Assembly: GCA_042216675.1 (NCBI GenBank)
Contig: JBDGTS010000050.1
Location: 1-29,145 of the forward strand
Origin: Halobacteriaceae archaeon
GTDB taxonomy: Archaea > Halobacteriota > Halobacteria > Halobacteriales > Halobacteriaceae
Direction of reading: 5' to 3'
Length of the DNA stretch: 29,145 bases
The translations under genes and the position numbers were made by a program. Positions 315-26,227 of the stretch are shown here, in pieces; within the stretch, counting starts at the first letter, position 1, and the number at the start of each line of letters is the position of its first letter. The notes beneath the pieces were generated by a model. The model saw nothing but the letters and a program-made list of their open reading frames with translations, did not search any database and had not been told where the DNA came from.

Positions 315-444
315 CCACCTTTTTGCGGCGCTTCGCCGCAAAAAGCTGGACCAAAAAGGCCACTCGCTCCGCGAGCGGTGAACGCGGCGCGCCGCGATGC
401 GGTTCCGCCGCGCCGTGAACGCGGCCTGACGGCCGCGATATGCT
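315..444. repeat. Modular palindromic intergenic element, copy A
   Basis: Perfect 12-bp stem ctttttgcggcg-ctt-cgccgcaaaaag (319-345) flanked by cca/tgg, then accaaaaa, ctcgc-tcc-gcgag, ggtgaac, and cgcggcc-tgac-ggccgcg (420-437) followed by atatgct. Shares architecture with 21380 and 24173. Confidence 0.8.
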
Positions 445-507
445 GCCCCTCGATTTTTGTGTTCTCCGGCCGTGAGGCTCAAATAGCACGTCGGCGTAGC
501 GCCGGCC

Positions 508-1020
508 GTGACAGTCCCCGACGGCCGTGTGGCGGACGTATCCGTCCGGCAGGCGGTGCGCGCGGACCTCTTCGAGGTCTACCGCATCGAGAAGGACTCG
601 TTCCCCCAGCCGTGGCCGTTCTCCGCCTTCGAGCGCTTCCTCGGCGAACCCGGCTTCCTCGTCGCCACAGACGACGAGGCCAGCGGCGACGGCCCCGTCC
701 AGCGCACGGTCCTCGGCTACGTCGTCGCCGACTGCGTGCGGAACCACGGTCAGCCGTTCGGGCACGTGAAGGACATCGCCGTCCACCCCCAGCGCCGCGG
801 CGAGGGCGTCGGCGCGGCGCTGTTGGCGCGGGCGCTCGACGCCCTCCGTCGGCAGGGCGCGACGACGGCCAAACTCGAAGTCCGGCCGAGCAACGAGGCC
901 GCCCGCTCGCTGTACGCCGACTTCGGCTTCGACAGGCTCCGGACGGTGCCGGGGTACTACGACGACGGCGAGGACGCGCTCGTGTACGTCCGCCCCCTCG
1001 GCGCCGACTCGGAGGCGTGA
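508..1020 (+). CDS. rimI: RimI-type N-acetyltransferase (GNAT)
   Basis: IEKDSFPQPW, HVKDIAVHPQRRGEGVG acetyl-CoA motif, LEVRPSNEAARSLY, YYDDGEDA. GTG start. Confidence 0.9.
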   Translation: MTVPDGRVADVSVRQAVRADLFEVYRIEKDSFPQPWPFSAFERFLGEPGFLVATDDEASGDGPVQRTVLGYVVADCVRNHGQPFGHVKDIAVHPQRRGEGVGAALLARALDALRRQGATTAKLEVRPSNEAARSLYADFGFDRLRTVPGYYDDGEDALVYVRPLGADSEA

Positions 1021-9717: not shown

Positions 9718-10944
9718 ATGGAGGAGACAGCAGTCGTCACCTGCTTTCTCCGGAACGGCGCGGCGGTGCTTCTCTTCCGCCGGAGCGAGGGGGTCGGCTC
9801 GTACTCGGGCCGCTGGGGCGCCGTCGCCGGCCACGCGGAGGGCGACCCGGACGCCGCCGCCCGCGAGGAAATCGCCGAGGAGGCGGGCCTCGCCGACGCC
9901 GTCTCCCTCGTCCGGCGCGGCGACCCATTTCCCGTCGAGGACCGCGACCGGGGAACCCGGTGGCTGGTCCATCCGTATCTCTTCGACTGCGAATCCCGCG
10001 AGGTGACCACGAACTACGAGACGGCGGCCCACGAGTGGGTCCACCCGACCGAGATTCGCCGCCGCGACACGGTACCGGACCTCTGGGCGAGTTACGACGC
10101 CGTCCGGCCCACCGTCGAGACGGTGCGCGCCGACGAGACCCACGGGTCGGCCTACCTGTCGCTCCGGGCCGTCGAGGTCCTGCGCGACGAGGCGGCCATC
10201 GCAGACGACTGGGACGCCGTCGCGGAGACGGCCCGCGAACTCCGCGCCGCCCGCCCGTCGATGACGGCGGCGCGGGTCCGCGTCGACCGGACGATGGCGA
10301 GGGCTGACCGGACGCCCGCGGCCGTCGAACGCGCCGCGCGGTCGGTCCTCGACGATGCCGTGGACGCCGACGAACGGGCCGCCGAGGCCGCGGCCCGCCG
10401 CCTCGACGGCACGGTGGCGACCCTCTCCCGGTCGGGGACGGTCCGCACGGCCCTCGAACGCGCGGTGCCCGACGCGGCTCTGCTCCCCGAGTCCCGGCCC
10501 GGCCGCGAGGGCGTCGCCGTCGCCGAGTCGCTGGCCGAGGCGGGTCTCGACGTGACACTCACCAGCGACGCCGCGCTTCCGGGCCTGCTCGACGGCGCGG
10601 ACGCCGCCCTCGTCGGCGCGGACGCCGTTCGCCCCGGGGGCGCGGTCGTGAACAAGGTGGGCACCTATCCGCTTGCGCTGGCCGCCGACCGGGCGGGGAT
10701 TCCGCTGTTCGCCGTCTGCGCCCGCGACAAAATCGGTTCCGGCGGGGGCGACGCGGGAACCGCGCCCGACATCTACGACGGCGAGGCGGCCCTGACCGTC
10801 GAGAACCCCCTGTTCGAGCGGGTGCCTCCGGACCTCGTGACTGTCGTCACCGAGGACGGAGCGCTCGACGCCGACGACGTGCGCGCCGTCGCCGCGGAGC
10901 ACCGGGCGCTGGCGGACTGGGACACAGACCGGGACGCCCAATAG
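9718..10944 (+). CDS. NUDIX domain fused to eIF2B/R15P-isomerase-like domain
   Basis: N-terminal VVTCFLR...WGAVAGHAEG...REEIAEEAGL Nudix; C-terminal ESRPGREG, VGADAV, VVNKVGTYPLALAA, NPLFE, VVTEDG of the IF-2B family. ATG 9718. Confidence 0.9.
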   Translation: MEETAVVTCFLRNGAAVLLFRRSEGVGSYSGRWGAVAGHAEGDPDAAAREEIAEEAGLADAVSLVRRGDPFPVEDRDRGTRWLVHPYLFDCESREVTTNYETAAHEWVHPTEIRRRDTVPDLWASYDAVRPTVETVRADETHGSAYLSLRAVEVLRDEAAIADDWDAVAETARELRAARPSMTAARVRVDRTMARADRTPAAVERAARSVLDDAVDADERAAEAAARRLDGTVATLSRSGTVRTALERAVPDAALLPESRPGREGVAVAESLAEAGLDVTLTSDAALPGLLDGADAALVGADAVRPGGAVVNKVGTYPLALAADRAGIPLFAVCARDKIGSGGGDAGTAPDIYDGEAALTVENPLFERVPPDLVTVVTEDGALDADDVRAVAAEHRALADWDTDRDAQ

Positions 10945-10975: not shown

Positions 10976-11054
10976 GACGATTGTTACCCCCTCCGAGCCC
11001 CGTGTGACGAGAACGGGCACGCCGAGCCGCCACCTCTCTTTGAACTGCCGAGCG

Positions 11055-11170
11055 CCGCGTCTGGCGAACCGGGGCGGACAGCGTGCCCCGTCTGGCGAAC
11101 CGGGGCGGACAGCGTGCCCCGTCTGGCGAACCGGGGCGGACAGCGTGCCCCGTCTGGCGAACCGGGGCAC
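11055..11170. repeat. 31-bp tandem repeat x3.7, each unit palindromic
   Basis: Unit ccccgtctggcgaaccggggcggacagcgtg starting at 11055 (one mismatch), 11086, 11117 and 11148 (partial); last unit forms gtgccccg-N10-cggggcac. Confidence 0.97.
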
Positions 11171-11179
11171 ACTTCCCCC

Positions 11180-11797
11180 TCAGAAGAACTGCTTCAAATC
11201 GTCGCGCTTCGCGTCGTCGAGGTGCCGTCGCACGGCGTCGTTGAGGGCGTCGATGCGGCCCTGCTTGGCCACGATGGGGGCGATGGTCTCGGGGTACTGC
11301 TGCCACGGCGGCACGAGGCCGAAGCGGTCCGCGATGGCGTTCAGGCGCTCGTCCCTGTCGTCGACCTTGTCCATCTTGTTCACGGCGATGACGGGTTCCA
11401 CGCCCACGTCCTTCAGGAAGTAGTACAGTTCGACGGTGTGTGGCACCTCGTCCTCGCCGGAGTGGCGGTCGATGATGTCCACCGCCGCCTTCCCGTCGAG
11501 GACGATGACGCCGACGCGAATCTCGTCGGCGTTGTCCTCGACGTAGCGCACCACGTCCGTCTTGATCTGCTCGCGGGTCTCCTCGGGGACGCCGGACATG
11601 AAGCCGAAGCCGGGGAGGTCCGTGATGACGAAGTCGGCGGAGGCCCAGTCGTAGTGGTTCGGCTGTCGGGTGACGCCGGGCTTGCGCCCCGTCGTGACGC
11701 TGTGGCCCGTCAGCTCCCGCATCAGTGTCGACTTGCCGACGTTTGACCGCCCGAGGAGGACGACCTCGTCCGCTCGGTTCGGGCGCGTCTCGAACAT
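11180..11797 (-). CDS. engB: GTP-binding protein EngB
   Basis: G1 GRSNVGKS, G2 PGVT, G3 DLPGFG, G4 NKMD. ATG 11797 after CTTTTAC. Confidence 0.95.
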
Positions 11798-11882
11798 GGC
11801 CGCTCGTAGGTGACGGGCGAGTAAAAGGACGCCGACACGGTGAGCAGGGTTCATGTGGCTGGCCCTCTCAGCCACCGACATT

Positions 11883-13481
11883 ATGGCACAATCCGACATC
11901 GACGCCAACCGCCGCCGCGTGCTGCAGGCCCTCTCGGCGGCGGGCGGCGTCGGCCTCGCCGGCTGTTCCGGCGGTGGCGGCGACGACGCGACGACGACGG
12001 CGACGGCCACGCCGACGCAGACGCAGACGGCCACGCCGACGCAGACGGCCACGCCGACGCAGACGGCCACGCCGACGCCGACGACGACCGAGGTGGACCT
12101 GCCGAACATCGAGCGACGGACGATTCAGCGCGACCGACCGGCCATCAAGCACGTCCGCAAACTCGTCACCGGGACGCTCACGTGGTCGACCATCCAGTGG
12201 ATTCACAGCGTCGACCCGAAACTGCTGGGCGCCTGGGAGGACGCCGACGAGCGCATCGAGTTCAGCGACACCGGCGAGTTCAGACTCGAAACGGCAGAGG
12301 GCGTGACCACCGGCGGGTGGCGGACGGTCCGCGACGAACTCCAGTTCGACCCCGACGGCGGCGACATCTGGTACTACACCTACGAACTGACGACGACGGA
12401 CGGCCAGCAGGTCCTCGAAATCAGCCAAGACGGCTCTCTCGTCGGCCGGTACGGCAAAGTCGAGGACGGCACCGACTCGCGGGGCGCCGTCGAGGTGTTT
12501 CAGGACCTGCTGGCGCGACCCCACACCGACGACTCCACCGAGAGCGCCGACATCGAGGCCGGGTCCTCGGGCACCGGGTTCGTCGTCACCCCGGAGGGCC
12601 ACATCGTCACGAACGCCCACGTCGTCGGCGCCCATCGCACGCCGAAGCGCCGCCTGTTCAGGCGCTACGCGACCATCAGTCGCGACGCCATCCGCGAGTC
12701 GCTGGCCGGCGACGGGAACTACTCCGACGCCCAGAAAGAGCAGATCGAGGACATCCTCTACCAGAAGATGCTCTCCTACTACGGCGAGCGCGGCACCTTC
12801 TCGGACGTCTCCGAGGCCGTCGAGGTCCTCAATCGCCGCACTACGGAGACTGGCGAGGTGGCTGCCGACCGGTGGTCGGCGACCATCGAGGCCGAGGGCA
12901 CCGTCGTCACCGATACCGCCGACGGGAAGTCGTGGGGACCCGACGTGGCCATCCTCAAGGTCGATACGAGCCCGCTCCAGACCGTCTCCATCGGCAGTGC
13001 CACGAACCTCGGCACCGGCGCCAGCGTGTTCGTCATCGGCTACCCTGCCATCGGCGTCGACGAACTGTTCGCCGATACGGCCTCGAATCTGACGCCCTCG
13101 CTGACCTCCGGGGTCGTGAGCGCGCGTCGCACCCTCAACTCCGGCGTCGAGGCCATCCAGACGGACGCCGCCATCAACAGCGGCAACAGCGGTGGCCCCA
13201 TCTACGACGACGAGGGCACCGTCGTCGGCATCGCCACCTTCGGCCCGACGGACGTGGACCTCGAACAGATACAGTTCGGCCTCCCCATCGGAGTCGCCAC
13301 GTCGTTCATGGACCAACTCGGCATCGAGAACACGTCCAGCGAGATGGAGGCCACCTTCGAGGAGGGCCTCCGGGCCTACTGGCGCGACGACTGCGAGACG
13401 GCCACCGCGAAGATGGAGGCCGTCCTCGACGCCGCACCCCACCATCCCACGGCGCGGCAGTTCATCAGCGAGTGCGAGTGA
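11883..13481 (+). CDS. Tat-exported lipoprotein, trypsin-like (S1C/HtrA-type) serine protease without PDZ
   Basis: NRRRVL twin-arginine, LAGC lipobox, Thr/Pro linker, GTGFVV, TNAHVV (His), DVAILK (Asp), [14 protein letters not shown] (Ser). Confidence 0.92.
12003..12080 (+). repeat. 18-bp in-frame repeats encoding (TATPTQ)n linker
   Basis: acggccacgccgacgc(ag) repeated four times after the lipobox. Confidence 0.9.
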
Positions 13482-20855: not shown

Positions 20856-21377
20856 ATGCGTGTCGACATCGTGCCGGTCGGCGACGTGCCCGCCTCCGTC
20901 AAGCGGGAGTCGTCGGCGGCACTCAGGGGGGTCTTCGACTGCGAGGTGTCCGTCGCCTCGCCCCAGTCCCTGCCCGACGGCGCCTACGACGAGCGTCGCG
21001 ACCAGTACCGGGCGGAGTCGTTCATCGACCACGTCACCGCCGTCGGGACCGGCGAGAAGACCCTCGCCATCACGACTGCAGACCTGTTCTACCGCCGCCG
21101 CAACTACGTCTTCGGCCTCGCGTACCTCGACGGCCGGGGCTGTGTCGTCTCCACCCACCGCCTCCAGACGTCCTCAGACGGCGGCATCTCCGCGAAGTCC
21201 GACGCCGACGTGTTCTCGGACCGCGTCCGCAAGGAGGTGGTCCACGAAATCGGTCACACGCTGGGCCTCGAACACTGCGACAACTCACGCTGCGTGATGA
21301 ACTTCTCCCCCACCGTCCGCGAGGTGGACGTCAAAGAGGAGCACCTCTGCGGGTCGTGCCAGCGTGACGTGATGTAA
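20856..21377 (+). CDS. amzA: Archaemetzincin Zn-metalloprotease
   Basis: HEIGHTLGLEHC, CVMNFS Met-turn, LCGSC. ATG 20856 after TTTAAG (20826-20831). Confidence 0.96.
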   Translation: MRVDIVPVGDVPASVKRESSAALRGVFDCEVSVASPQSLPDGAYDERRDQYRAESFIDHVTAVGTGEKTLAITTADLFYRRRNYVFGLAYLDGRGCVVSTHRLQTSSDGGISAKSDADVFSDRVRKEVVHEIGHTLGLEHCDNSRCVMNFSPTVREVDVKEEHLCGSCQRDVM

Positions 21378-21379
21378 AT

Positions 21380-21540
21380 CCACTTTTTCGCACGGGGAGC
21401 GGCGCACACCGCGCCGCTCGCCGGCGAAAAACTGGGGAAAACCCGCGCGGCCTCCCGGTCGTCGGCCGCGCTCCCGCTCGCTCCGCTCGCGGTGAACCGC
21501 CAGCCTCGCGTTCGCCGAACCGCTCGGCTGGCGGATGCTC
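21380..21540. repeat. Modular palindromic intergenic element, copy B
   Basis: ccactttttcgc...gagcggcgc-acacc-gcgccgctc...gcgaaaaactggggaaaa; 31 nt identical to copy C (21444-21474); ggtgaac-[9-bp stem]-atgct module shared with copy A. Confidence 0.9.
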
Positions 21541-21678
21541 GTCCTGTCGTGGCGGCGGCGTTGGACGGCTGCGATGCCGAGTGGAGGAAGAGCCGGGACT
21601 ACGACTGAGCGAAGCGACGGAGCAGAAGCCGTGCGGACTGGATTGCCGGCGGCACGGCAGAGCCGCGCCGACCGCACC

Positions 21679-23520
21679 TCACTCCGTGTAGTAGTACTCG
21701 CCCGACGACTTCTGCTGTCGGTCGAGTTGGCTCCCCGGCTTGTTGATGCGGGGGCGGCCCGTCCGCTCGTCGCGGCGGAAGGTCACGTCGAGGTTGGCGA
21801 GGAACTCGTTCATCCCGTCGCGCATGTCGGTGGGCGGGCTGGCGCGGCCGTGTTCGGCCGGCTCGCCGTCGAACACCATCAGCCGGTCCGACACGAGGTC
21901 CACGAGGTAGATGTCGTGGTCGATGACCATCACCGGCTTCTCCTGATTCTCGGCGAAGCGGCGGATGGTGCGCGTGGCGAGGACCCGCTGTTCCACGTCG
22001 AGGTGGGCCGACGGCTCGTCGAGCAGATAGAGGTCGGCGTCCCGCGAGAGGCAGGCCGCGATGGCCACCCGCTGGCGCTCGCCGCCCGAGAGGTCCGTGA
22101 GATGCTGCTCCATGATGCGGTCCAACTGGAGCGGCTGGGCGATTTCGGTGTTCCAGTAGGAGGTGCCGAAGTCGCTCGTAATCGAGGAGAGGAAGGCGTC
22201 GACGCGGATGGCGTCGTCGGCCTCGACGTACTGGGGCTTGTAGGCGATGTCGATGTCCATGTCGAGGCTCGCGCCCGTCTCGCCGGCGACGCTGTCCGGG
22301 TCGAGGCGACCCGCCAGCATCTTCGCGAAGGTGGATTTCCCGATGCCGTTCGGGCCGACGATGCCCAGCACTTCGTTCTCGTAAATCGAGCCCCCCGCCA
22401 CGTCGAGGGCGAACTCGCCCTCACCGTAGGACTTCTGCATCGCGGGGTACTCCAGCAGGGTGTCGGCGGTGCTGACCGTCCGTGGTGCGTGCTCCTCGAA
22501 CGTGATCTCCTGCTGGCGGATGCGCATGTTCTCGTTCGAGAGGTAGCCCGTGAGATACTCGTTGATGCCGTTGCGGGTCGGCTTCGGGTCCGTGATGACG
22601 CCGAACGCGCCCGGCTCACCGTAGGCGACGTGCAGCGAGTCCGCGAGCAAGTCGAGGATGGCGAGGTCGTGTTCGACGACCAGCACCGCCCGGTCCTCGT
22701 CGGCGAGTTCCCGGACGAGGCGGGCCGCGGTCACGCGCTGGCTGATGTCGAGGTACGGCGTGAGTTCGTCGAGGAAGTAGAAGTCGGCGTCGCGGGCGAG
22801 ACACGCCGCGAGCGCCACGCGCTGGAGTTCGCCGCCCGAGAGGCTGTCGATGTGCTGGTCCATCACGGCGCGAATTTCGAGGCGGTCGACGAGGTCGTCG
22901 AGTTCGCCCCGCTCGTCTGTTCGCTCCAGCAGGTCGCGGGTCTTCCCGTCGAAGCGGTCCGGGATGTGGTCGACGTACTGGGGCTTGCGCGCCACGGACA
23001 CGTCGCCGTCGCGGAGGCCCGCGAGGTAGTCCTGCAGTTCCGTCCCGCGGTACTGGGCCATGATCTCGTCCCAGTCCGGCGGGTCGGCGTGGGCGCCGAG
23101 GTTCGGCGTGAGTTCGCCCGCGAGCGCCTTCACGGCCGTCGACTTCCCGATGCCGTTCGGACCGAGCAGCCCGGTCACCTTCCCCGATTCCGGCACGGGG
23201 AGGCCGTACAGTTCGAAGGCGTTCTCCCCGTAGCGGTGGGTCGGCTCGTCGTCGAGTTGCTGGGGGAGGTTGATGATTTCGATGGCGTCGAAGGGGCACT
23301 TCTCGACGCAGATGCCACACGTCTCGCCCAGACACAGCTCCTCGGAGATGCTGACCTGTTCCGGTTCGCCGTCGAACGGTTCGTCGCCGTGGCGCTCTTC
23401 GCGCGTGACGATGCACTCCTCGCCCGTCCGGTTCGGCGGGCAGAAGTTCGCGCACTCGTAGTTACAGCGGTCGGGCTGGCACCTGTCGAGGTCCACGACC
23501 GCGATGCTGTCCTGGGCCAT
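21679..23520 (-). CDS. Ribosome recycling ATPase ABCE1/RLI
   Basis: Two Fe-S motifs (CQPDRCNYECANFCP, CGICVEKCPFDAI), two GPNGIGKST Walker A, two LSGGE signatures, TFRRD...RPRINK. Confidence 0.98.
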   Translation of the reverse strand: MAQDSIAVVDLDRCQPDRCNYECANFCPPNRTGEECIVTREERHGDEPFDGEPEQVSISEELCLGETCGICVEKCPFDAIEIINLPQQLDDEPTHRYGENAFELYGLPVPESGKVTGLLGPNGIGKSTAVKALAGELTPNLGAHADPPDWDEIMAQYRGTELQDYLAGLRDGDVSVARKPQYVDHIPDRFDGKTRDLLERTDERGELDDLVDRLEIRAVMDQHIDSLSGGELQRVALAACLARDADFYFLDELTPYLDISQRVTAARLVRELADEDRAVLVVEHDLAILDLLADSLHVAYGEPGAFGVITDPKPTRNGINEYLTGYLSNENMRIRQQEITFEEHAPRTVSTADTLLEYPAMQKSYGEGEFALDVAGGSIYENEVLGIVGPNGIGKSTFAKMLAGRLDPDSVAGETGASLDMDIDIAYKPQYVEADDAIRVDAFLSSITSDFGTSYWNTEIAQPLQLDRIMEQHLTDLSGGERQRVAIAACLSRDADLYLLDEPSAHLDVEQRVLATRTIRRFAENQEKPVMVIDHDIYLVDLVSDRLMVFDGEPAEHGRASPPTDMRDGMNEFLANLDVTFRRDERTGRPRINKPGSQLDRQQKSSGEYYYTE

Positions 23521-23918: not shown

Positions 23919-24170
23919 ATGGGTGTGAAACTGGACGACCTTCCGCCGAGCGCCAAACTCGTGTACAAGGTCCTCGAGTACGACGGACCGATGACACAGA
24001 AGGAACTGGTTTCGGAATCGATGCTGTCCGCGCGGACGGTGCGGTACGCGCTCGACCGGTTGGACGAGCGCGGCGTCGTCGACGAGGAGATATACTTCGC
24101 CGACGCGCGCCAGAGCCTCTATCAGCTCTCTCCCGACCCCTGCTCGTGTTCCTGCGGGCAGGAGGCGTAA
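23919..24170 (+). CDS. Winged-HTH DNA-binding protein (MarR/Lrs14-like)
   Basis: LPPSAKLVYKVLEYDGPMTQKEL...LSARTVRYALDRL...DARQSLY. ATG 23919 after CTTTTTAC. Confidence 0.9.
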   Translation: MGVKLDDLPPSAKLVYKVLEYDGPMTQKELVSESMLSARTVRYALDRLDERGVVDEEIYFADARQSLYQLSPDPCSCSCGQEA

Positions 24171-24172
24171 CA

Positions 24173-24361
24173 CCACTTTTTCGCACGAGGCGCGCCGACG
24201 GTGCGGCGCGCGCCGGCGAAAAACGTGGGGAAAATGCGCGCGGCCTCCCGGTCGTCGGCCGCGCTCCTGCTCGCTCGCTTCGCTCGCTCGCAGTCTTCTG
24301 CCGCCCGGGACGGCCCCGTTGCCGCCCGCTACCGCACCGCTCCCGCTCGCTTCGCTCGCGG
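24173..24361. repeat. Modular palindromic intergenic element, copy C
   Basis: ccactttttcgc...gcgcgccg-acggtg-cggcgcgc...gcgaaaaacgtggggaaaa; 24237-24267 identical to copy B; two (gc-tc)n-ttc hairpins at 24267-24293 and 24343-24361. Confidence 0.9.
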
Positions 24362-24364
24362 TCC

Positions 24365-26227
24365 CTAACTCGGAACGACCGTGATCCGTTGCTCGCGGTC
24401 GATGGCCCGTTCGAGTTCTTCGGCGATGGCGCTCCCGCGCGACACCTGAATGTCGCCGCCGCGGCCCACCGTGGCCGTGAACAGGTACTCCCCGTCGGCC
24501 CGCACTTCGACCGTCTCGCCGGCGTGTTCCTGTCCCATCGGCACGATGACGTGCCGGCCGGTGACTTCCGGCGTCACCACGTCGCCGGCGTGGCCGCCGC
24601 CACCGCCACCTCCGCCACTGCCCGCGTCGCCACCGGCGGCGGGTTCGGGTTTCTCCTCGAAGGTTCGGACGTCGATGTTGACCCCGAGGCGGTCCTCCAC
24701 GTCGGAGATGCGGCCGCCGCCCTTGCCGATGACGTAGGAGATGTCGTCGTCGCTCACGTAGACGACGGCCTCGTTCGGCCCTTTCACCTCGACCTCGACG
24801 GGGCCGCGGACGAGCGACTGAATCTCGCGCTCGATTTCGACCTCCGCGAGGCTCTCGACGCCGCTCGGTTCCTCCTCGGTTTCCCCGAGGGGGACGGTGA
24901 CGACCTGTCGGTTGAAGGTGTAAATCTCGTAGTCCGGCTGGCCGGTCTCGAAGTCCCGAACGAGGATGACCGGGCGGGCGAGGTCTTCCTCCATCAGGCC
25001 CTCGGGGACCTTCACCTCGGTGACCACGTCGTAAATCGTCTCCACCTCGCCGTCCTCGATGAAGACGACGGTGTCGACGACCTGCGGAATCATGCCGAGT
25101 TCGACGCGGCCCACGAGTCGCTGGAGGGCGTCGATGGGGCGCGTCGCGTGGACGACGCCCACGAGGCCGACGCCCGCGAGGCGTATGTCCGCGAACACCT
25201 CGAAGTCCTCCGTCTTGCGCACCTCGTCGTAGATGGTGTAGTCCGGGCGCACCATCAGCAACGAGTCCGCGGTGCGCTCCATCGACCCGCGGAGTTCGGT
25301 GTACTGCGTGATGTCGTCGCTCACGTCGAGGTCCCGGGGCTTCTCCATCGTCTTGATGACGAAGCCCTCGTCGGCGAGGAACTCGGCGACGGACTGTGCG
25401 AACGTGGACTTCCCGGCGCCGGGCGACCCGGCGATGAGGACGCCCCGGTCCCGTTCGAGCAGTCGCTCCCGGAGTTCGTCCGCGTGTTCGTAGTCGTCGA
25501 GGACCGTCTTCACGAGCGGTCTGACCGCCGTGATCTCGTGGGCGTCGCTGAACGGCGGTTCGGCGACGGCGATGCGGTACTCGCCGATTTGGACGATGGT
25601 CATGCCCGGTTCGTCGAAGTCGACGAAGCCGCGGTCCGTGCTCCGCGCCGTGTCGATGATTTCGGCGGCGTACTGCCGCATCTCGTCCCCGGTGAGTTCC
25701 TCGTCGCCGACCTGTTCGAAGGTGATGTCGCCGACGGTACCCCGCTTGGCCATCGGGACGACCCCTTCACGGAGGTGGAGGCTCATCGTCTCCTCGTCGA
25801 AGAACGACTCGATGGTCAGCGGCGTCTCCTCTTTGGCCTCGGGTTCGAGGTAGCGGGTGTCGATGCCCTTGGCCTCGGCCACCTCGCCCTGCACGATGTC
25901 GCTGGTGAGGAAGGTGGCCTCGTGGTCGACGGCCACGTCGCGGATGCGGGCGTCGATGGCGCCCGCGGCGGCGCGTTCGATTTCGCTCTCGCCGGGGCGC
26001 TCCCCGACGTAGTCGAGTTCGATGTCGCCCGCGTCCGCGAGGTCCGCCAGTCGCTGTAGTTCTTCGAGGCCGTCCCAGCCGGTCTGCCGGCCGGCGTTGG
26101 CCTGCGCTTCGAGTTCGCTCACGACCGCTTCGGGAACGATGATCCGCGCGCCCGCCAACTCGCCGTCAGCGACGAGTTCCGACACGCGGCCGTCCACGAC
26201 CACGCTCGTGTCGGGCACAATCTTCAT
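24365..26227 (-). CDS. PINA-type ATPase (PIN domain + P-loop ATPase + KH domain)
   Basis: VPDTSVVVDG PIN motif, GSPGAGKST, RPDYTIYDEVR, GVVHAT, KH IGKGG. Start 26227 fits TTTTATG spacing; alternative ATG at 26236. Confidence 0.93.
   Translation of the reverse strand: MKIVPDTSVVVDGRVSELVADGELAGARIIVPEAVVSELEAQANAGRQTGWDGLEELQRLADLADAGDIELDYVGERPGESEIERAAAGAIDARIRDVAVDHEATFLTSDIVQGEVAEAKGIDTRYLEPEAKEETPLTIESFFDEETMSLHLREGVVPMAKRGTVGDITFEQVGDEELTGDEMRQYAAEIIDTARSTDRGFVDFDEPGMTIVQIGEYRIAVAEPPFSDAHEITAVRPLVKTVLDDYEHADELRERLLERDRGVLIAGSPGAGKSTFAQSVAEFLADEGFVIKTMEKPRDLDVSDDITQYTELRGSMERTADSLLMVRPDYTIYDEVRKTEDFEVFADIRLAGVGLVGVVHATRPIDALQRLVGRVELGMIPQVVDTVVFIEDGEVETIYDVVTEVKVPEGLMEEDLARPVILVRDFETGQPDYEIYTFNRQVVTVPLGETEEEPSGVESLAEVEIEREIQSLVRGPVEVEVKGPNEAVVYVSDDDISYVIGKGGGRISDVEDRLGVNIDVRTFEEKPEPAAGGDAGSGGGGGGGGHAGDVVTPEVTGRHVIVPMGQEHAGETVEVRADGEYLFTATVGRGGDIQVSRGSAIAEELERAIDREQRITVVPS

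Follow-up and report, generated by a model that had tools for sequence, protein, structure and literature searches.

A probable strand-selected class of REP-like intergenic hairpins, marked by GA/GA mismatches and GNA loops, across the Halobacteriales

The window analyzed here is a 29,145-nt contig (JBDGTS010000050.1, assembly GCA_042216675.1) from the metagenome-assembled genome (MAG) of a Halobacteriaceae archaeon. Three of its intergenic spacers, referred to below as copies A, B, and C, carry short hairpins that in their fullest form place GA opposite GA within the stem and end in a GAA or GGA loop, all on the minus strand. Hairpins of this form are in marked excess between the genes of this archaeon, their distinguishing features gather on one purine-rich strand (the GA strand), and their core recurs throughout the order; a real, strand-selected, Halobacteriales-wide hairpin class is thus very probable. 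The best reading is a repeat class that resembles the bacterial repetitive extragenic palindromes (REPs) in place and organization but lacks a RAYT-type enzyme, with the window hairpins as members of such intergenic modules. Each member comprises, on its purine-rich strand, short G:C/A:T stems, tandem G.A/A.G mismatches in a pyrimidine-GA-purine (Y-GA-R) context, and a C:G-closed GNA triloop cap. When the form under selection is further specified as a hairpin of single-stranded DNA (ssDNA), our confidence in the reading as a whole is about evenly balanced.

Genome-wide excess of GA/GA hairpins and choice of one strand

The window is contig C27 of a MAG of 2.15 Mb in 58 contigs (68.8% G+C, 80% complete). 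Genes were called with a simple codon-usage model, a crude caller of our own that returned 2242 genes and 90.5% coding sequence; an archaemetzincin gene that it missed was added by hand. The intergenic DNA (217 kb) was scanned for hairpins with an outer stem of at least 3 bp, a 2x2 internal loop, a 2-bp inner stem, and a loop of 3-5 nt, against a background of 20 mononucleotide shuffles. GA opposite GA (equivalent to TC opposite TC on the other strand) was the commonest non-pairing symmetric 2x2 loop, occurring in 44 of 537 intergenic hairpins against a shuffle mean of 5.65. This amounts to an 8-fold excess over shuffles and a 5-fold excess over the composition-matched AG/AG class (9 intergenic hairpins), and all other 2x2 classes stayed within about 2-3 fold of their own shuffle means. 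The density of GA/GA hairpins was 20.3 per 100 kb in intergenic DNA and 6.5 per 100 kb in coding DNA.

A palindrome is identical from both strands unless its symmetry is broken. Among 55 intergenic GA/GA hairpins, the loops read on the GA strand were GAA (11), GGA (9), and GCA (3), and never TTC, TCC, or TGC, so that loops and mismatches are co-oriented in 23 cases against 0. The loop-closing pair was C:G in 40 of the 55, with inner stems AC (21), GC (17), and CC (2); the inner stem began with A or G in 45, and the outer flank was c...g in 31 and t...a in 8. Both arms accordingly present the Y-GA-R context with Watson-Crick flanks that characterizes CGAG blocks, and the consensus core is C-GA-RC-GNA-GY-GA-G (13 nt). 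The asymmetry also held elsewhere. Single mismatches in the outer stems followed suit (on the GA strand, G.T 15 and G.G 7 versus A.C 3 and C.C 0), and the GA-strand flanks were purine-rich (0.56-0.58). In other Halobacteriales, 610 kb drawn from 80 orthologous loci gave 19 GNA against 3 TNC loops. A sample from genome G126 gave 30 against 0, although its loci were picked around the motif and only five GTA loops are therefore free observations.

The mismatched GA, the GNA loops, and the G.T and G.G mispairs of the stems thus share one purine-rich strand, and the conclusion that selection acts on one strand, with the GA strand as the folding strand, is well supported. The first-pass annotation of the window had claimed that one specific strand is functional and had proposed to test whether GA/GA stems and GNA loops are enriched on one strand genome-wide; the claim is well supported, the enrichment was found, and mismatch and loop identities are far from random.

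Distribution in the order and covariation of the stems

Across 121 genomes of the order, the core motif yielded 5569 matches and a reversed control 1671 (3.33-fold). It exceeded the control in 105 of these genomes, fell below it in 9, and tied in 7. Beyond the order, 81 genomes of the phylum gave 0-13 matches each, close to the controls. In G126, 63 of 88 motif matches were intergenic, and these copies were combined with three window hairpins in a structural alignment (A1, 66 copies) in which six outer-stem pairs lay outside the search pattern. These outer stems co-vary through many pair types: 78% of cells were paired versus 22-42% with slid partners, and the covariation score of 0.474 compares with at most 0.117 and was reached in none of 500 shuffles, though many aligned copies are related repeats and the covariation overstates their independence. 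The stems clearly differ among copies, but their GA and GNA positions do not change; the conserved feature is structure, not sequence. We found no description of these hairpins in the literature searched, which was largely without subscription journals and supplements.

Single-stranded DNA and the alternatives

Selection most likely acts on the GA-strand hairpin as ssDNA, which would be exposed by replication, transcription, or supercoil-driven extrusion. It may serve as a very stable structure that resists nucleases and single-stranded-DNA-binding protein, or as a recognition site for a protein. In DNA, d(GCGNAGC) and d(GCGNNAGC) are described as extraordinarily stable (melting temperature 76.5 C), and r(GCGAAAGC), the RNA form of a related loop, melts at 39 C (PMC13037366); stacked C-GA-G blocks likewise form stable DNA hairpins (PMC10085684). 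Across the 121 genomes, the 5569 GNA triloop matches come from three loop sequences, and the tetraloops GNRA (1561) and GNYA (1381) are about equally frequent, which favors DNA, since selection on RNA would be expected to prefer GNRA. Hairpins that neighbor the GA hairpins are mostly triloops (C-GAA-G 24 versus C-TTC-G 10) with few four-base loops, and RNA-type UUCG or GNRA loops in their vicinity were ruled out on this ground. With respect to transcription, the GA strand in co-directional spacers was the sense strand in 14 and the template strand in 10 cases in this genome, and in 25 and 17 cases in G126; divergent spacers held a further 13 and 11 copies, respectively. Orientation is thus not tied to transcription. 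The first-pass annotation had noted that, in all three window copies, the folding strand serves the upstream gene as template. As a general rule this is not supported by these counts, and in copies B and C that strand also reads as sense for the converging gene. Taken together, ssDNA fits the loop rules and the orientation data better than RNA does.

Several results nonetheless weigh against the ssDNA form. By DNA nearest-neighbor parameters, the GA strand gains little over the TC strand (-3.4 versus -2.6 kcal/mol for the 27-mer at 24267-24293; -3.7 versus -3.3 for the 19-mers), and the 27-mer folds no better as DNA than its shuffles (z = +0.76, with an equal or better fold in 153 of 200), although these parameters may omit the special stability of mini-hairpins, an experimental property (PMC13037366). 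The gain is larger in the RNA model (-10.4 versus -6.2 kcal/mol for the 27-mer and -7.8 versus -5.7 for the 19-mers). In copy C and at six orthologous loci, the hairpins lie on the sense strand of a gene for a PIN-ATPase-KH protein, ahead of T-runs, in an arrangement like that of a 3' untranslated region (3' UTR). There is a slight overall sense excess (39 versus 27, this genome and G126 pooled), and the sense/template and intergenic counts themselves depend on our crude gene calls. No enzyme or binding protein for the hairpins was identified, and this genome showed no replication-strand signal (positive signed GC skew at 22 of 40 sites, p = 0.2). G126 is suggestive only post hoc: the regional strand bias of its complete chromosome (4+/11- at 0-0.74 Mb and 31+/10- at 1.78-3.3 Mb) came to notice once the data had been inspected, correlates weakly with skew (r = 0.14), and is not counted as evidence. 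Forward/reverse asymmetry reached p < 0.01 in 3 of 121 genomes. The most extreme of them, G002 (6 versus 30), owes its asymmetry largely to tandem arrays and, collapsed to loci, stands by our own count at 5+ versus 17- on its contig 1, which is unremarkable for the most extreme case picked of 121.

The energy models and the gene-proximal position speak for a rather unlikely but substantial alternative, in which the GA strand is selected as RNA and forms 3'-UTR or intergenic structures that block 3'-5' decay, aid termination, or bind protein through sheared G.A pairs. The RNA model favors the GA strand by 2-4 kcal/mol, and G.T mismatches on that strand would be G.U wobbles in RNA. In copy C, hairpin 1 stands 3 nt past a minus-strand stop codon, with two further hairpins and then T-runs behind it, an order that recurs after the orthologous gene at the six loci (L096, L080, L040, L042, L047, and L031). 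Of 47 placed hairpins, 10 fall in convergent spacers, which make up only 9% of intergenic length, and hairpins are reported upstream of RNA 3' ends in Haloferax (PMC7237163). On the other side, only 5 of the 10 convergent cases, by our own reading, have the GA strand as sense for the nearer gene, 27 of 66 co-directional copies are antisense to both neighbors, and 24 copies sit in divergent spacers. The loops are GNA triloops with no preference for GNRA, and such loops lose much of their stability as RNA compared with DNA (PMC13037366). T4 runs in the 12 nt 3' of the hairpin were present in 0/9, 0/37, and 3/13 cases (3/59), and in the window directly 3' of hairpin 3 (24238-24264, minus) only; a hairpin plus T-run as a general terminator was rejected on this count. 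No Rfam family reached its gathering score in the window, and E-value scans of the window and hairpin-rich loci returned only tRNAs and chance-level matches. A kink-turn or K-loop carries a three-nucleotide bulge 5' of tandem G.A pairs on one strand; here the internal loops are symmetric 2x2 both by reading and by folding. The ssDNA hairpin first suggested from the window is plausible: the loop rules and orientation data agree with DNA, and the nearest-neighbor gain, larger as RNA, does not.

Two further explanations concern how such repeats could arise. Under the HUH-nuclease idea of the first-pass annotation, the hairpins would be substrates of an HUH Y1 transposase, that is, ends of IS200/IS605-type elements moved as ssDNA in the manner of REP/RAYT pairs or palindrome-associated transposable elements (PATEs). 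TnpA and RAYT enzymes do read imperfect, strand-specific hairpins (PMC6006769, PMC3733652), IS605-type transposons have given rise in haloarchaea to many palindrome-associated elements that lack a transposase (PMC3119063), and the copies here occur in dispersed repeats and at contig ends. We nevertheless consider this very unlikely. PF01797 (Y1 transposase) was not found in this MAG, 80% complete as it is; it is present in 54 of the 121 genomes of the order, where it is unrelated to motif number (median 38.5 motifs with and 29 without, Mann-Whitney p = 0.46), and 16 genomes without it carry 60-385 motifs, some of these genomes being 99% complete. Outside the motif, the alignment of 66 copies shows no column, invariant or nearly so, that could act as a flanking tag, and only IS200 subclass 1.1 is reported from Archaea (PMC6006769). 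Both ends of the sole TnpB element of this genome (contig C8, locus L020) carry perfect, TTCA-looped GC stems and no GA hairpins, and on this one element TnpB-element palindromes were ruled out as the source of the GA hairpins. A class that is REP-like in form would thus be kept up without need of a Y1 HUH transposase. The other explanation grants the hairpins no function and sees in them a gctc/gagc microsatellite with a slipped center, or chance imperfect palindromes in GC-rich DNA. A period-4 array is indeed detected by Tandem Repeats Finder (TRF) at 24269-24291, DNA-model z-scores of single hairpins are unremarkable, and copies B and C are paralogous. The array is, however, weak (5.5 copies, score 37) and has its indel exactly at the dyad; most members are not gagc-periodic, with AC/GT inner stems in 21 of 55 and varied outer stems; and the GA/GA excess, the co-orientation of loops and mismatches, and the 3.3-fold excess of the motif in 121 genomes all stand against it. 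Contigs from two metagenome samples, moreover, carry identical sequence over 24238-24449 (and over 21445-21764). Slippage of gctc, the reservation entered in the first-pass annotation, is excluded as the full cause; as a full explanation the microsatellite or chance reading is refuted, and a wholly functionless origin is highly improbable.

Repeat organization

The organization of the hairpins resembles that of bacterial REPs and bacterial interspersed mosaic elements (BIMEs). The dispersed units that contain them measure 70-180 nt and are 73-86% identical, and the hairpins cluster two or three to a spacer. Tandem arrays also occur, such as a 72-nt unit repeated three times on contig C13, and further copies are found at contig ends. 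In G002, seven GA-capped hairpins follow one another at 52-nt spacing, all on one strand (C1:230786-231110), and composite elements hold GA hairpins in both orientations. Similar arrays were seen on the same G002 contig at 515240-515388 and 1359991-1360207. In G126, a repeat of ~400 nt near C1 position ~2634228 (locus L151:9100-9600) matches up to 43 of 87 other motif-centered excerpts of the chromosome; it combines GA hairpins in both orientations with a long inverted repeat and has no Rfam match.

In six other genera (the loci listed above), one or more GA hairpins and then a T-run palindrome lie downstream of the PIN-ATPase-KH gene. At this site in Natronococcus roseus (L096:4786-5085), a T-palindrome cassette of ~67 nt is flanked by a 117-nt duplication of the 3' end of the gene (94% identical), and a sister species has an uninterrupted site there (L072:4760-5100 compared). 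In a Halorientalis MAG, a 160-nt unit that includes the gene end is present in ~4 repeats (L040, downstream of 4857). In the genome of the window itself, the tRNA genes at C25:10500-10870, C23:27980-28260, C45:10380-10800, and C18:15515 have downstream of them two or three direct copies of their own 3' end (T-arm and acceptor); each copy is matched by an inverted one, and the pair makes a long hairpin tipped by a GA/GNA cap. These copies may be integration scars or hairpin-driven duplications. The modules as a whole, in dispersed and often tandemly duplicated units, would spread by local duplication and recombination or by an enzyme yet to be found.

Hairpins, palindromes, and genes of the window

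The coordinates of the three copies are collected in Table 1. All minus-strand strings that the first-pass annotation had read in them were confirmed by direct reading and by folding, and the folding tool returned the same stem, GA/GA, and triloop pairings as direct reading on both strands.

Table 1. Spacers, hairpins, and T5/A5 palindromes of copies A, B, and C in the window
Feature	Copy	Positions	Strand	Structure or context
Spacer	A	315-528		Left, plus-strand aconitase-C-like gene fragment; right, plus-strand GNAT acetyltransferase gene
T5/A5 palindrome	A	315-349		CCACC-T5-GCGGCGC-TTC-GCCGC-A5-GCTGG; abuts TAA at 312-314
Hairpin	A	363-375	minus	ctcgc-GGA-gcgag; perfect 5-bp stem, GGA loop, no GA mismatch
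Spacer	B	21378-21678		Left, plus-strand archaemetzincin gene; right, minus-strand ABCE1 gene
T5/A5 palindrome	B	21380-21435		Starts 2 nt past TAA (21375-21377) of archaemetzincin gene
Twin of hairpin 3	B	21445-21471	minus	8-bp stem closed by GA/GA
GA-capped hairpin	B	21474-21492	minus	ccgc-GA-gc-GGA-gc-GA-gcgg; read and folded
Hairpin	B	21497-21534	minus	9-bp stem, GA/GA mismatch, inner stem with bulge
Spacer	C	24171-24364		Left, plus-strand winged-helix (wHTH) gene, end 24170; right, minus-strand PIN-ATPase-KH gene, end 24365
T5/A5 palindrome	C	24173-24228		CCAC-T5-CGC ... GCG-A5-CGTGG; starts 2 nt past TAA (24168-24170) of wHTH gene
Hairpin 3	C	24238-24264	minus	8-bp GC stem closed by GA opposite GA, then T4 run
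Three-tier GA hairpin 2	C	24267-24293	minus	ctgc-GA-gc-GA-gc-GAA-gc-GA-gc-GA-gcag; read and folded
GA-capped hairpin 1	C	24343-24361	minus	ccgc-GA-gc-GAA-gc-GA-gcgg; read and folded

Read along the minus strand, copy C runs from the stop codon of the PIN-ATPase-KH gene (24365-24367) through 3 nt, hairpin 1, a 49-nt GC-rich spacer, hairpin 2, the GA-closed 8-bp hairpin with its T4 run, and the T5/A5 palindrome. Hairpin 2 consists of stacked CGAG-type blocks with a GAA cap, and its core has matching stretches of 22-35 nt in 23 of 41 related genomes. A 19-mer identical to hairpin 1 stands 12 nt past the ortholog's stop codon in locus L096, and a 30-mer that includes hairpin 3 recurs identically at 21445-21474. 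Hairpins 1 and 2 and the GA-capped hairpin of copy B all carry gc-GAA-gc or gc-GGA-gc, as in the GCGNAGC mini-hairpin.

Copies B and C lie in convergent spacers and form a paralogous module of ~120 nt, 84% identical and present only twice in the genome, and are therefore mutually non-independent. Copy A, in a co-directional spacer, is a looser analogue with the GGA loop only, and its GGA strand is antisense to both neighbors. The copy C spacer had no match in the plasmid collection, and within one genus the spacer is not syntenic, so that an empty-site comparison failed there. The window PIN-ATPase-KH protein is at most 72% identical to its counterpart in named Halobacterium species, so the source is a Halobacteriales archaeon with no close cultured relative among the records searched.

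All three copies open with a T5/A5 palindrome 0-2 nt past the stop codon of a plus-strand gene, so the three window units adjoin such palindromes at gene 3' ends. By our own search rule, there are 12 T5/A5 palindromes in the genome, 8 of which share CCACC/CCAGC flanks and abut stop codons. Examples outside the window, on other contigs of this genome, lie at C1:112709, C5:30583, C17:3578 and 3777, C25:7474, C30:24713, and C31:260, and related forms follow the orthologous gene in other genera. As the intergenic termination signal in Haloferax is a T stretch (PMC7237163), the T5/A5 palindromes look like bidirectional terminators.

Two other repeats were seen in the window. A 31-nt tandem repeat at 11054-11168 (3.7 copies, 98% matches, TRF score 223) occupies a convergent spacer between a plus-strand gene ending at 10944 and a minus-strand gene ending at 11180, and each of its units holds a GCCCCG...CGGGGC hairpin. 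An 18-nt in-frame repeat at 12015-12083 (3.8 copies, 96% matches), inside the plus-strand gene 11853-13481, is probably a low-complexity linker.

Relation to known systems

Like REPs and BIMEs, the hairpins are short, imperfect, GC-rich palindromes of high intergenic copy number that often cluster, take either orientation, and lie close to the 3' ends of genes, with one strand bearing the distinguishing features. The bias toward spacers that defines REPs is seen both in the density of GA/GA hairpins in this genome and in the intergenic share of G126, and some Pseudomonas REPs also contain unpaired GA residues (PMC3733652). Unlike REPs, the haloarchaeal hairpins have no GTAG or CGTC tag in alignment A1, are not tracked by a RAYT-type enzyme (to judge from the distribution of PF01797), do not avoid divergent spacers, are hosted by Archaea, and are defined by a fixed cap rather than by a family-specific sequence.

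The cap itself is familiar from DNA mini-hairpins of the d(GCGNAGC)/d(GCGNNAGC) type, as a C:G-closed GNA loop on a 2-bp stem tops nearly every member and the GNNA variants here, as there, lack a purine preference at the third position (PMC13037366). The known natural mini-hairpins are, however, single sites, namely priming origins of ssDNA phages and plasmids and the N4 promoters (PMC13037366), whereas members of the present class number from tens to hundreds in each cellular chromosome. Similarly, the 27-mer of hairpin 2 is a stack of CGAG blocks with a triloop tip, comparable to a human promoter repeat in which nuclear magnetic resonance shows G:C and sheared G:A pairs (PMC10085684). The human case is one eukaryotic locus with register shifting; the haloarchaeal blocks are short, genome-wide, and held in register by the GNA cap, and their sheared geometry is a prediction.

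With PATEs and IS605-type palindromes, the hairpins share the character of abundant, small, intergenic haloarchaeal repeats that bear palindromes and lack a transposase (PMC3119063). They differ from them in that the resident IS605-type element has perfect, TTCA-looped palindromes and in that copy number is unrelated to the Y1 transposase. This comparison covers one resident element and PATEs by their description, and the PATE palindromes tabulated in Table S9 of PMC3119063 may bear on it. Finally, the T5 runs of the window modules sit right after stop codons on both strands, as expected of haloarchaeal T-stretch terminators, but this likeness belongs to the neighboring T5/A5 palindromes; the GA hairpins themselves seldom have a T-run.

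Implications

We tentatively suggest that tens to hundreds of hairpins per Halobacteriales chromosome, tuned for folding as ssDNA and REP-like in organization, persist without RAYT or IS200 enzymes and so imply a process or protein that reads ssDNA hairpins. Candidates for such a process would include lagging-strand synthesis, recombination-driven replication, and genome maintenance in polyploid archaea. The DNA/RNA question is directly testable in model species by genetics and transcriptomics. Even if the active form proves to be RNA, the fixed cap supplies a simple, searchable 13-nt marker with which many structured, unannotated elements between haloarchaeal genes could be mapped as one large class. 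Should the purine strand prove to fold as ssDNA in vivo, the GNA mini-hairpin would for the first time be seen in use throughout a cellular genome, and the class would represent an archaeal counterpart of REPs that works without the enzyme thought to maintain them.

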